Source: Candidatus Aenigmatarchaeota archaeon
GTDB taxonomy: Archaea > Aenigmatarchaeota > Aenigmatarchaeia > CG10238-14 > SCSR01
Assembly (NCBI GenBank): GCA_030615205.1
Contig: JAUWZS010000001.1
Coordinates: forward strand, 10,019 to 74,018
DNA: 64,000 nt
Direction of reading: 5' to 3'
The translations under genes and the position numbers were made by a program. Shown here piece after piece: positions 56,423-59,162 of this stretch (the first letter of the stretch is position 1; the number at the start of each line of letters is the position of its first letter). The notes under the pieces are model-generated. The model saw only the letters and a list, made by a program, of their open reading frames with translations. It made no database searches and was not told the DNA's origin.

Positions 56423-56452
56423 TTAACAGAACCAAAAACCGTGTTCTGTTAA
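56423..56452. repeat. 30-nt hairpin element, copy 1 (TTAACAGAAC-N10-GTTCTGTTAA)
   Basis: The 10-bp arms are perfect and the spacer is caaaaaccgt. A near-identical copy lies at 59133-59162. Confidence 0.9.
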
Positions 56453-56653
56453 TTTGAGGGGTTCTGGATGAACTGTTAACTGCGGGGCTTTTGCACTATG
56501 ACTTAGTCCAATTTGGAATGCTCATCTTTATAAATAATCATACACCATAACTTACTAACATAATTTAAACTCCAACAGAAAGAAACTTGTGTTGTTCTAA
56601 CTCACGAACAGCGTTTTCTGAAGTTGGATAATAATTAGTTGGAGGTATATTTA

Positions 56654-57631
56654 ATGAGTTTAAGAGTTCGTAACAAAGGATTTGAAGTTCACAGAACCTT
56701 AAAAGGACAGTTCTGTGGCAGAGTTGTCGATATAAAAATTGATGGTGTTACCATAGAAACACCAAAAACAGTCCCAAGCAAAAAAGAGCTTGAATATTTT
56801 TCTCAAGCTGATAGGCGAACAGCAGATTTGTCTGTAGTTCAATATGTTACACAAATGAGACATTTTGGAGGATTCCAAAGTTCTGCAGACCAGACAAGAG
56901 AAAAACTGTTATATGAATCGTTTCTTCGAGCGAACCAAGGTAGCATTGTAGATTTCTTTCTCCAATATCCACACCGTTTTAATTTGACTAACAGACAACA
57001 AGCTATGGCTATGGATTTACAAAACGACACTGTCTCAAAATTTGTTTCTCACTTTGAACAAAATAGAAATCAGAAAGCAGATGTTTTCGAAAAGGAAATC
57101 ATATTGCTAAGGAAAACATACAACGACAAGATATTTACCCCGAGCGTTCATATGAAAACAGAAAAGGAGGGACTCATAAGAAAAAAGGTTAAGGTAGTGT
57201 TGAATAACGGTTTTCAGAGAGTGAATGTCATTTACGCTTCAATACTTGAAAACCCATCAAATTGGTTCGCACTTTCTAACTTAATTTATGACAAAGACTT
57301 ATGGGTTAACGTGGTTGGGGTTTTACCACGAATGACAATAAAAGAAAAAACTGCTATGATTCCTTGGACATTCCTCTTTGGAGCTAATACAACATCTTTA
57401 GCTAAAGCTTGGGGTGGTGGTTCAGCGTATCCACGCCATTTAAACAGAGATACATCTTGCTTTGATATAGTGGACAGGAATATTTCATATCCAAAATCAA
57501 GAGCAGAAAATGTTAAAGAAACTGAAATAGTAAGTCAAGATATTAAAAATAGTATATTGCAACAAAACTTATTCAGAAATCTTGTTCGTAACAGAGCAGG
57601 ACTTAGGGATATCATTAACAGACTGCGCTAA
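56654..57631 (+). CDS. hypothetical protein with collinear TGT/DpdA-like (tRNA/DNA-guanine transglycosylase) motifs
   Basis: GGAGGT lies 8 nt upstream of ATG 56654 (the track uses TTG 56639). GFEVHRT..GRVVDIKIDGVTIETPKTVPS resembles the Tgt N-terminus FEL...GRLVF.RGVVETPCFMPV. RHFGGFQS resembles DSGGFQ, and VVGVLPRMT resembles FDCVLPTR. The Tgt sequences are recalled from memory. Confidence 0.35.
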   Translation: MSLRVRNKGFEVHRTLKGQFCGRVVDIKIDGVTIETPKTVPSKKELEYFSQADRRTADLSVVQYVTQMRHFGGFQSSADQTREKLLYESFLRANQGSIVDFFLQYPHRFNLTNRQQAMAMDLQNDTVSKFVSHFEQNRNQKADVFEKEIILLRKTYNDKIFTPSVHMKTEKEGLIRKKVKVVLNNGFQRVNVIYASILENPSNWFALSNLIYDKDLWVNVVGVLPRMTIKEKTAMIPWTFLFGANTTSLAKAWGGGSAYPRHLNRDTSCFDIVDRNISYPKSRAENVKETEIVSQDIKNSILQQNLFRNLVRNRAGLRDIINRLR

Positions 57632-57898
57632 TGGATGTGAACCTATTACATCCATAATTTCTTTTTTGAATTTTTTAGTTCTCGCTTGGATTAGATTTCT
57701 ACAGTGGGTTTCTTGTAGACCATCTTTAAAGGAGTTGAAAGGAAGGCAATTTAATCTTTCTTTTTTTTCTTTATTACAATTTACGCAAATTTTCTTTCGA
57801 TAGTCCCAATTATATTTTAGAAGTCTTTGCTCCAAAAGAAATCCTTGATTATTCCATTCTTTAATATCCTGAGAAATATTTTTAGTTCTTGTTATCAT
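57569..57898 (-). CDS. hypothetical Cys/His-containing protein (possible zinc finger)
   Basis: 109 aa with ICVNCNKEKK...ETHC. Its 3' end overlaps the convergent 56654..57631 ORF by 63 nt. Confidence 0.45.
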   Translation of the reverse strand: MITRTKNISQDIKEWNNQGFLLEQRLLKYNWDYRKKICVNCNKEKKERLNCLPFNSFKDGLQETHCRNLIQARTKKFKKEIMDVIGSHPLAQSVNDIPKSCSVTNKISE

Positions 57899-57912
57899 AT
57901 TAGTAATATTAG

Positions 57913-57956
57913 TATTTTTAGTATAAATACTATTTCTACTATTTTTAGTATAAATA
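57913..57956. promoter_or_regulatory. two perfect 17-bp direct repeats (tatttttagtataaata), each containing a TATA-like box
   Basis: The copies lie at 57913-57929 and 57940-57956, in the divergent spacer between 57898(-) and 57991(+). Confidence 0.6.
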
Positions 57957-57990
57957 GTAGATTTAATATACTACGATTTAAATTATAATT

Positions 57991-58158
57991 ATGGGTGAAA
58001 AGATTTTGGATACATCAGAAATAGAGAAAAAAAGAAATTATCAATTGACTTTAAAAAGACGTGTTAGAGAAGCATTAGGTATTAAAAATCAAGCTAAAAA
58101 AGTTGAACTAAAATTTATTTTAGATGGTAAAAAAGTTGTAATAAAGAAAAATGAATAA
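57991..58158 (+). CDS. AbrB/SpoVT/MazE-type DNA-binding mini-protein (55 aa)
   Basis: Hand translation: MGEKILDTSEIEKKRNYQLTLKRRVREALGIKNQAKKVELKFILDGKKVVIKKNE. It fits the swapped-hairpin pattern y.vtiPk.vReaLgik. Confidence 0.55.
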   Translation: MGEKILDTSEIEKKRNYQLTLKRRVREALGIKNQAKKVELKFILDGKKVVIKKNE

Positions 58159-58165
58159 GTTTTTG

Positions 58166-58324
58166 CTATTTTTTCTTAATCCAATCCTTTATCGCTTCGG
58201 ATAGGGCTATTGTTATGTTACCCTTCTTGAACCCAAGTTTTTTTACGACAGCTTCTCTGAATCTCTTGTCAAGTTCTACATAGACTCGCAGTATAGTTTT
58301 GTGATTGAGGCGAACGGAACTAAC
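58166..58324 (-). pseudogene. ribbon-helix-helix (CopG/Arc-like) reading frame with no ATG/GTG/TTG start
   Basis: Hand translation: ...KTILRVYVELDKRFREAVVKKLGFKKGNITIALSEAIKDWIKKK*. The frame is open back to a TAA at about 58370 but contains no canonical start codon. Confidence 0.35.
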
Positions 58325-58568
58325 GTTAGGAAAAATATAAATAGGAATGTCAACAAAAAATAAGTAAGATTAGCAGGGAGGACATCGCTGACCATCCCTG
58401 CCAGTTATCATTAGAACGATGTTCTAACTCACTAAATAAAAGTTGGATTTCGTGCATATATAAAATAGTTAGTTTGGCGCGGTTTGGACGGTAGTTCTAC
58501 TTGATTCTTGGCTCATAAGGTCAGCACCTCCTTGAAAATCTGTTAAAAGAATGGAGGTGAAAGAAAAA

Positions 58569-58730
58569 ATGGCTAAGAAATACAATCCATACGAAGCAGC
58601 TGCTCGATATTATAGTCTGACTAAAAAGCTAATAAAAGACCACGATACTAAAATGATGGAACAGTTAGATAATATCAAAACAAGTCTTACCGAGATTAAA
58701 GAAGCTTTGAAAATAGAGCAAAAAGCTTAG
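58569..58730 (+). CDS. 53-aa helical hypothetical protein
   Basis: GGAGGTG lies 9 nt upstream. The translation is MAKKYNPYEAAARYYSLTKKLIKDHDTKMMEQLDNIKTSLTEIKEALKIEQKA. Confidence 0.45.
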   Translation: MAKKYNPYEAAARYYSLTKKLIKDHDTKMMEQLDNIKTSLTEIKEALKIEQKA

Positions 58731-59017
58731 TCTTTAAAGGCGGTTTTGGGGATTGAGACTTCTGTTTCTTTTCCCATACTTCTGAAAATTAATGATATCT
58801 TCTCAGAACTGTTGCTTATGAACAGATATCTATCGGGCTCATCTTTTCGAATTGAAAAACTATCAGCTTCTTTTGATACAACTTTTTCAATTAGCGGGAG
58901 AATTTCAAAATTGATTTGTTCTTCAATCCTCTTAATAATCTGCATAGCTTCAGATGAAGAAATCGGCTTCTCCATCATAGCGTTCTCTTGTTTTTTAAGA
59001 ATTAGGTTGGCACTCAT
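58727..59017 (-). CDS. hypothetical protein
   Basis: 96-aa ORF, convergent with the 53-aa ORF and overlapping it by 4 nt. Confidence 0.5.
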   Translation of the reverse strand: MSANLILKKQENAMMEKPISSSEAMQIIKRIEEQINFEILPLIEKVVSKEADSFSIRKDEPDRYLFISNSSEKISLIFRSMGKETEVSIPKTAFKD

Positions 59018-59132
59018 AATATCACTATATTATTTATGGGATAAGTATTATACCTCGCTTTCGATGGGGGGCAAGTCCGATGAGCCCCGATGGTTAACAA
59101 CACTTTACTTTCACCTCAAAAGCCCTGCTAAA

Positions 59133-59162
59133 TTAACAGAACATCAAACCGGGTTCTGTTAA
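59133..59162. repeat. 30-nt hairpin element, copy 2 (TTAACAGAAC-N10-GTTCTGTTAA)
   Basis: The arms are the same perfect 10-bp sequences as copy 1. The spacer atcaaaccgg compared with caaaaaccgt indicates direct orientation. Confidence 0.9.

Follow-up and report, generated by a model that had tools for sequence, protein, structure and literature searches.

The stretch of DNA analysed here, hereafter the window, comprises 64,000 nt of archaeal sequence with an rRNA operon, taken from a contig of about 402 kb of a marine-sediment metagenome (positions 10,019 to 74,018 of contig JAUWZS010000001.1, assembly GCA_030615205.1, Candidatus Aenigmatarchaeota archaeon). Close to its right-hand end lie two adjoining elements, which we call E1 and E2 (Table 1). 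E1 is a short block of about six genes in mixed orientation, with a G+C content of 0.26-0.36 versus ~0.40 in the upstream core genes, and E2, which runs out of the window, brings together restriction-modification (R-M) genes, an exonuclease gene and a transposase gene of the IS6 family of insertion sequences (IS). Each edge of E1 is marked by a 30-nt hairpin, and the pattern TTAACAGAAC-N10-GTTCTGTTAA, with perfect 10-bp arms, occurs exactly twice in the 64 kb, at 56423-56452 and at 59133-59162, against 0.01 copies expected; none of 100 dinucleotide shuffles reached two, and a mismatch-tolerant search of the whole window gave no further copies. The two loops, caaaaaccgt and atcaaaccgg, agree at 6/10 positions in direct register and at 2/10 when inverted, and the motif gc(g/a)gggcttttg is found near both hairpins in opposite orientations, at 56482-56493 (+) and, as its reverse complement, at 59117-59129. 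All of this had been described in an earlier examination of the letters of this stretch (the sequence-only reading), and it is borne out here. That reading had explained the hairpins either as termini or att-type sites of a small mobile cassette, or as operators for the regulators that the cassette was thought to encode.

Each of the two hairpins is, in all likelihood, the head-to-head junction of two IS6-type transposon ends across an 8-bp target duplication. The hairpin arm corresponds to the outermost 11-12 bp of a terminal inverted repeat of the IS6-family type, a sequence that we call the tip (consensus GGTTCTGTTAAC when read inward, also given as the pattern GGTTCTGTTAA). The hairpin as a whole is a composite: a tip of E1 provides one arm, a neighbouring element or a solitary tip provides the other, and between them the target duplication makes up the loop. 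Along the window, the order is a solitary tip, 8 bp, E1, 8 bp and E2. The loops lie in direct orientation because they are two copies of a single target duplication, and the gcggggcttttg motifs of the sequence-only reading are inverted because they are the subterminal iterons of inverted ends, namely those of E1. When a profile of transposon ends was compiled from other loci (45 ends, none of them from the window), it gave exactly four matches in the 64 kb, which are the four hairpin arms, each on the expected strand; the tip consensus holds across the 45 ends. The anatomy, the association with an IS6 transposase, the target duplications and the fixed spacing are all seen in many independent loci.

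Table 1. Features of the window and complete elements in other loci.
Locus	Feature	Coordinates or size	Strand	Description
Window	Solitary tip	56422..56433	-	Reads GGTTCTGTTAAC; left arm of hairpin 1; end-profile match 56433-56412 (-), E=0.0026
Window	8-bp spacer AAAAACCG	56434..56441	.	Left copy of the E1 target duplication; hairpin 1 loop minus its outer C and T
Window	E1	56442..59143	.	2702-bp transposase-less IS6-type element (non-autonomous transposon or mobile insertion cassette)
Window	E1 left terminal inverted repeat	56442..56489	+	Tip TGTTCTGTTAAT, iteron GAGGGGTT, TGTTAAC box, iteron GCGGGGCT; aligns with the reverse complement of 59083-59143; weak end-profile match 56443-56483 (+), E=0.15
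Window	325-aa protein	56654..57631	+	E1 cargo; TIM-barrel fold closest to tRNA-guanine transglycosylase
Window	109-aa Cys/His-rich protein	57569..57898	-	E1 cargo; convergent with the 325-aa gene, 63-nt overlap
Window	55-aa open reading frame	57991..58158	+	E1 cargo; no Pfam or PADLOC match
Window	59-aa open reading frame	58551..58730	+	E1 cargo
Window	96-aa open reading frame	58727..59017	-	E1 cargo; first gene inward from the right end
Window	E1 right terminal inverted repeat	59083..59143	-	Tip TGTTCTGTTAAT, iteron GCAGGGCT, GTTAAC box, iteron CGGGGCT; end-profile match 59142-59084 (-), E=8e-5
Window	8-bp spacer TCAAACCG	59144..59151	.	Right copy of the E1 target duplication, between the E1 and E2 tips
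Window	E2	59152..64000	+	IS6-type transposon with passenger genes, autonomous-type; right end beyond the window
Window	E2 left end	59152..59256	+	Tip GGTTCTGTTAAG, three (A/G)ATTGGT iterons, GTTAA boxes; end-profile E=0.005
Window	R-M cargo of E2	59300..60987	.	BglII-like endonuclease (+), N4/N6 methyltransferase (-), 91-aa winged-helix gene (-)
Window	DEDD / PolB-exo-like exonuclease gene	62472..62996	+	Pfam RNase_H_2, DNA_pol_B_exo2; 11-nt overlap with the transposase start
Window	IS6-family DDE transposase with N-terminal zinc finger	62986..63999	+	Cut by the window end; relatives about 360 aa
L037	Complete element	284-3484		Duplication CAATTCCA; ends 100% identical; carries methyltransferase and transposase
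L063	Complete element	2098-4160		Duplication TTAGTTGT
L034	Complete element	1388-4903		Duplication GGTTGGGG
L048	Complete element	551-2123		Duplication AAAATCCA
L051	Complete element	246-2885		Duplication TATGTAGC
L065	Complete element	74-3254		Duplication CGCCGGGC
L042	Complete element	207-1150		Duplication TGAGACCG
L075	Element A	7 kb		Exonuclease, transposase, type I M and S; abuts element B; AGGTGGTG at all three junctions
L075	Element B	13143-15087 (1.9 kb)		No transposase; Ham1-like and GDPD genes; perfect AGGTGGTG duplication
L076	Complete element	7.4 kb		Order: tip, CAGGGACCA, element, CAGGGACCA
L080	Complete element	7.7 kb		CTTCCGCGG on both sides; right copy directly followed by another tip
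L082	Complete element	9.6 kb		Duplication CCTGAAGCG; both ends free

The ends of E1, of ~50-60 bp, align as inverted repeats whose tips are identical over 14 nt, and each contains, inward from the tip, an iteron, a GTTAA(C) box and a second iteron, the iterons being specific to the element. The two 8-bp spacers that flank E1 agree in register at 6/8 positions, for which we calculate a chance of ~0.004; a 9-bp register was also tried for this duplication and was set aside as a poorer fit. With IS-type inverted ends, a flanking duplication (imperfect, 6/8) and no transposase (a homology search inside E1 found none), E1 has the make-up of a miniature inverted-repeat transposable element (MITE) or a mobile insertion cassette (MIC). 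Its iterons (sGGGGCT) differ from those of E2 (rATTGGT), no cognate transposase for E1 is in view, and the element presumably moved in trans in the past. Thus far, the proposal of a small mobile element with the hairpins at its termini stands, as supported by the inverted ends and the end profile, whereas the notion of att-type sites does not, given the inverted flanks and the absence of a recombinase domain from the open reading frames scanned across 56-64 kb.

A further claim of the sequence-only reading, that half-sites of the hairpin are concentrated in this region, holds in a weaker form than proposed. The 8-mer TTAACAGA is mildly enriched in the window (10 copies versus 3.6 expected, a count reached by 1/100 shuffles), and six of the ten copies fall inside 56.4-59.3 kb, four of these being the arms of the two hairpins themselves. 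The half-sites at 59217 and 56474 (CTGTTAAC) are the GTTAA(C) boxes in the terminal repeats of E2 and E1, respectively. The tip-8 bp-tip anatomy accounts for the features that had been noted at this locus, except for the half-sites at 57615 and 58539. These two 8-mers (TTAACAGA/TCTGTTAA, at 57615-57622 and 58539-58546) lie within E1, do not match the end profile and are possibly due to chance; the one at 57615-57622 is not conserved in the related locus L035. Elsewhere in the window, an inverted TTAACAGA pair (26020-26027 and 26427-26434) surrounds the tRNA-Ala gene in the spacer of the rRNA operon, shows no match to transposon ends and may belong to a stem used in rRNA processing.

The same junction was found in other loci. 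Genome and metagenome collections were each scanned once for the palindrome, with loops of 4-20 nt / 8-12 nt allowed, and most matches were chance palindromes. The exact palindrome together with its flanking architecture, on one or both sides, was present in 14 distinct metagenome or metagenome-assembled genome (MAG) loci of varied archaea, including MAGs labelled Nitrososphaerales (L010) and Methanoregula (L034) and many unassigned contigs. In the genome collection, only L010, L028 and L034 belong to this family, the remainder being mostly chance palindromes from unrelated bacteria; the genome of the window was absent from the matches, and a scan of viral contigs for the palindrome gave no match. 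In all 14 loci the 10-nt loop has the form C-N8-G, and the flank beyond the arm reads 2-3 nt, an 8-10-nt element-specific word, ~10 nt, GTTAAC and, after 1-3 nt, a repeat of that word. Homologues of the window transposase, with 34-44% identity, were detected by tblastn in 9/14 loci. Seven complete elements could be delimited, with inverted ends of 51-54 bp that begin with GGTTCTGTTAAC and with perfect 8-bp direct duplications, one copy of which touches an opposite-facing tip. Two side observations may be added. A gene-less element of 539 bp (L055 174-712), with ends of the family type and with tips abutting both sides, has no matching duplication and is probably a MITE of this group. In addition, a Lachnospiraceae MAG (L003 5942-6251; L064) has an unrelated repeat in four copies at intervals of 93 nt; this repeat contains the same 10-bp arms by coincidence, with an 11-nt loop, and stands outside the archaeal family.

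These 14 loci had been ascertained by the palindrome, and a second sample was fetched through transposase homologues only, with the ends mapped afterwards. Four of its five complete elements abut a tip, and in each case the spacer has the length of the element's own duplication, either 8 or 9 bp. One of the loci is L075, a 389-kb contig of a relative (topA 68% identical) in which the elements lie near topA as they do in the window. In three further loci, which belong to three transposase clades (L076, L080 and L082), the duplication measures 9 bp instead of the 8 bp considered typical of IS6, and so does the tip-to-tip spacer in L076 and L080. Among the incomplete cases, L071 and L074 show one free end each, in L072 the end is followed after ~9 nt by a tip-like sequence, and mapping gave no recognisable ends in L078 and L083. 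Taken together, the two samples, drawn from different environments and lineages, hold about 20 junctions of this kind, and their fixed geometry indicates a preference of the elements for landing next to one another's tips. This preference is not absolute, as the element of L082 and the first arrivals of each array were inserted without a tip.

The reading of the hairpins as junctions between transposon ends has several points to its disadvantage. The first 14 loci were selected by the palindrome itself and the unbiased sample is small, and two junctions, in L053 and at the 539-bp element of L055, lack matching duplications. In the window, the 8-mers AAAAACCG and TCAAACCG agree at 6/8 positions only and the E1 tips start with TG instead of GG, which could mean that E1 is old or immobile. 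Nothing recognisable as an element lies behind the solitary tip that makes up the left arm of hairpin 1; this tip has an iteron-like flank of ~10 nt (ttATCGGATC) without a second GTTAAC box. Such solitary tips are likewise present in L037, L048 and L051, and could be relics of lost elements, or else fortuitous or ancient target sequences. Lastly, the right end of E2 is outside the window, which shows this element and its flank on the left side only.

Two other explanations take the hairpin as a functional site in its own right, and we regard both as extremely improbable. The hairpins could be attL and attR sites, the hairpin having served as the core when a small plasmid or virus was integrated by site-specific recombination of the tyrosine or serine type. 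This would agree with the presence of the family-type flank only on the right of hairpin 1 and of the E1-type flank on the left of hairpin 2, when 'full' sites with two flanks are known elsewhere, and with a tRNA-Cys gene 3 kb away. However, those 'full' sites are two different elements abutting, since the iterons of their two sides often differ, and the conserved flanks are inverted, not direct. Moreover, the repeated part is limited to the 11-12-bp tips, with centres that differ at 4/10 loop positions, no integrase or recombinase domain was found in the open reading frames scanned across 56-64 kb, in or near E1, and the related junctions carry IS6 transposases and target duplications of 8-9 bp. 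As for the palindromes being operators for a dimeric regulator of the cassette or of the R-M system (an AbrB-like, ribbon-helix-helix or winged-helix/controller protein), their arms are perfectly conserved around a variable spacer, with ~20 bp from centre to centre, and both copies stand 140-200 bp upstream of genes, those for the 325-aa protein and the endonuclease. The palindrome, however, recurs in MAGs and contigs of distant archaea that lack these regulators, always in the architecture of transposon ends, with terminal-repeat arms and target duplications. Conversely, a homologue of the winged-helix gene (80% identical) resides in L078, a locus without a recognisable tip, and L035 and L036 keep homologues of the 325-aa and Cys-rich genes with no 30-mer, their hairpin inventories containing no equivalent palindrome. 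Relatives of this last kind, with the genes and without the repeats, were what the sequence-only reading itself had named as evidence against its proposals. A structured RNA or attC-like hairpin was also entertained, on account of apparent covariation, with G-U pairs, in the outer stem, and was dropped once inverted transposon ends and target duplications had been recognised in the flanks. Rfam and tRNA scans found no RNA family at either hairpin. In the source sample, a single assembled contig spans the region without joints (in a comparison of assembler contigs only), and the metatranscriptome has no coverage of the region.

The last alternative accepts the IS6-type transposons as described and has them abutting without any targeting, through chance pile-up in a permissive stretch, recombination between copies or the movement of pre-formed composites. 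Elements do occur away from tips, as the complete one of L082, free at both ends, and the single free ends of L071 and L074 illustrate; every array must have been founded by an element that landed where there was no tip (see the outer flanks of L075), and arrays, once formed, could spread as composites. Against this, the spacing equals the duplication length in the about 20 junctions, 8 bp, or 9 bp where the duplication is of 9 bp, and a second copy of the spacer is found at the incoming element's other end. The probability that chance would place ends next to each other with an accuracy of one base is negligible, and we consider an origin of the arrays without targeting very improbable.

Turning to the genes of E1, the 325-aa protein has no match in Pfam, NCBIfam, PADLOC or among PDB sequences, and its family counts 47 representatives among 1.8 billion proteins. 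Its structural model, with a predicted local distance difference test score (pLDDT) of 94, finds tRNA-guanine transglycosylase (TGT) as the best Foldseek match (E 4e-10, TMq 0.59), and the top 12 PDB matches are all TGT/QTRT1 (E 4e-10 to 2e-7, TMq 0.53-0.59). The TGT-like label given to this open reading frame in the sequence-only reading is thus upheld at the level of the fold only. The convergent Cys/His-rich gene and its overlap with the 325-aa gene, which the same reading had pointed out, are confirmed, and the overlapping pair is conserved at 60-66% identity in the window (56654-57898), in L035 (10001-11290) and in L036 (813-2009), the Cys-rich homologues of the last two, in the same arrangement, being 60-62% identical. 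The pair of L036 sits behind a different IS6-type, IS26-like tip, GGTTCTGTTGCAA, with GGTTGA iterons of its own. On the other hand, the AbrB-like (55-aa) and ribbon-helix-helix labels had no Pfam support at E<=0.1. The 96-aa open reading frame, which may be an accessory gene, has a 32% identical homologue in L068 (539-760), in an element with a transposase; counted inward from an end of that element, the homologue likewise comes first.

The left end of E2 can be aligned over ~105 nt to one end of element A of L075. The transposases of this element and of the window are 71% identical, and the E2 end is therefore cognate to this transposase clade. A search with the tip and the end profile from 59152 to 64000 found no tip besides this left end. 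The transposase scores 136.3 bits with the NCBIfam model NF033587 (cut-off 125) and matches Pfam DDE_Tnp_IS240 (PF13610) at 2.9e-19. The R-M genes match Pfam Endonuc-BglII (8e-24) and N6_N4_Mtase (2e-60), as well as REase_II and MTase_II of PADLOC. Immediately before the transposase gene, the exonuclease (about 173-175 aa) is 67-80% identical in L071-L081, where it keeps the same place and is at least as conserved as the transposase, and it appears to be an integral component of the transposons of this clade. Between the cargo and this gene pair, inside the presumed E2, an 84-nt tRNA with a long variable arm was called as tRNA-Cys(GCA) at 62274-62357. Related transposase-bearing loci hold, within or beside the elements, Vsr/Dcm, Dam, type I M/S, PvuII-like, HATPase_c_3, PD-(D/E)XK and Fic genes. 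Upstream of the transposase homologue of L083 (1-9000) there are a prokaryotic Argonaute (pAgo, PAZ/Piwi), a Cas4-like nuclease and a set for preQ0 synthesis (GCHY-1, PTPS, QueC and radical SAM).

The closest known relatives of these elements are those of the IS6 family, which is recognised by its 8-bp duplications and by GG and cTGTt in its tips (PMC7986276). The likeness to IS6/IS26 includes a DDE transposase of the IS6 model (NF033587, PF13610), GG tips with a CTGTT motif and 8-bp target duplications. In the curated IS6 family, the average size is ~800 bp, the repeats measure 15-20 bp and a single member carries a passenger gene; zinc-finger transposases have been noted mainly in Clostridia (PMC7986276). 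Unlike typical IS6 members (0.7-0.9 kb, with short repeats and no passengers), the elements described here span 1.6-9.6 kb, have repeats of at least 50 bp with GTTAA(C) boxes and iterons, and carry R-M and other cargo; in the clade of the window, a DEDD exonuclease gene is also coupled to the transposase. Archaeal IS6 members are small and experimentally untested, and Harmer and Hall doubt that the archaeal 'IS6' elements belong to the family (PMC6807381). E1, the 539-bp element of L055 and the 1.9-kb cargo derivative of L075 resemble MITEs and MICs; of such derivatives, the 2021 review (PMC7986276) names just two IS6 MITEs and not a single IS6-type MIC. The hairpins also recall the attC sites of integrons, in that imperfect palindromes bound gene units and the GTTAAC boxes look superficially like R'' (RYYYAAC) and R' (GTTRRRY). 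However, we are dealing here with inverted transposon repeats and not with one attC per cassette, the centre of the palindrome being a target duplication, and no IntI-type integrase domain was found in the open reading frames scanned across 56-64 kb.

Insertion next to a resident end has precedents. IS26 tends to integrate beside an existing copy, and its targeted integration is conservative, creates no duplication, leaves one IS copy shared by both neighbours and needs identical reacting ends, mismatches being suggested to block strand migration in this route (PMC7986276). In contrast, the elements studied here are heterologous and abut tip-to-tip with a duplicated 8-9-bp spacer. IS30 and IS911, of the IS30 and IS3 families, also insert next to their own or end-like sequences, leaving ends that abut a few base pairs apart, a parallel cited by the IS6 review (PMC7986276). 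They differ in having transposases of other families, a copy-out-paste-in pathway with circular or dimer intermediates, and spacers of 2-3 bp. For IS30 and IS911, the junction of abutted ends serves as a reactive intermediate and does not build lasting arrays of different cargo elements. A search of the literature, which was not exhaustive, found no description of this group, of end-adjacent IS6 insertion, of tip-to-tip arrays or of archaeal zinc-finger IS6 cargo transposons. As transposon anatomy, the hairpin itself is ordinary, and it is the insertion preference and the architecture of the elements that appear undescribed.

The ends of these elements are modular, with a universal tip and with iterons that covary with the element or clade; rATTGGT iterons are shared by the window, element A of L075 and L071, whose transposases are 71-76% identical. 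The subterminal iterons would be bound by the transposase and confer end specificity, and the shared tip would be the catalytic substrate, where cleavage and joining take place. The preference for inserting beside a resident tip would then reflect active targeting. A transposase positioned on the resident tip would set one of the two staggered strand transfers at the phosphodiester between tip and flank, the bond that it normally cleaves, with the second transfer falling 8-9 bp outward (9 bp in some clades), and ordinary copy-in would duplicate that flank. The incoming element would thereby land one target-duplication length from the resident one, and repeated rounds would stack cargo transposons into arrays. 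This resembles the first step of the models for targeted conservative integration of IS26 and for repeat-targeting by IS30/IS911 (PMC7986276). The conservative route itself would not be open because the elements share only the tip, when identical reacting ends are needed according to the review, and the outcome would be abutted heterologous elements instead of a shared IS copy. Whether an uncatalogued and widespread group of archaeal IS6-like cargo transposons does target the resident tip in this way, building heterologous arrays of defence-type genes, is a proposal that we judge evenly balanced.

The original observation is deflated by these results, as the hairpins are a by-product of two ends meeting, and neither a new recombination site nor an operator. 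In turn, the tip-8 bp-tip palindrome provides a simple signature for delimiting such elements in MAGs, and the IS6-type repertoire is extended to cargo transposons of several kilobases, which have modular ends and are partnered by a conserved exonuclease. If the targeting proposal is true, it would represent a third outcome of IS6-type targeting, distinct from both modes of IS26, and a transposase-based route to the growth of defence islands in the small genomes of DPANN-type archaea, offering a testable mechanism for the side-by-side build-up of R-M and DNA-modification genes in these tiny genomes.

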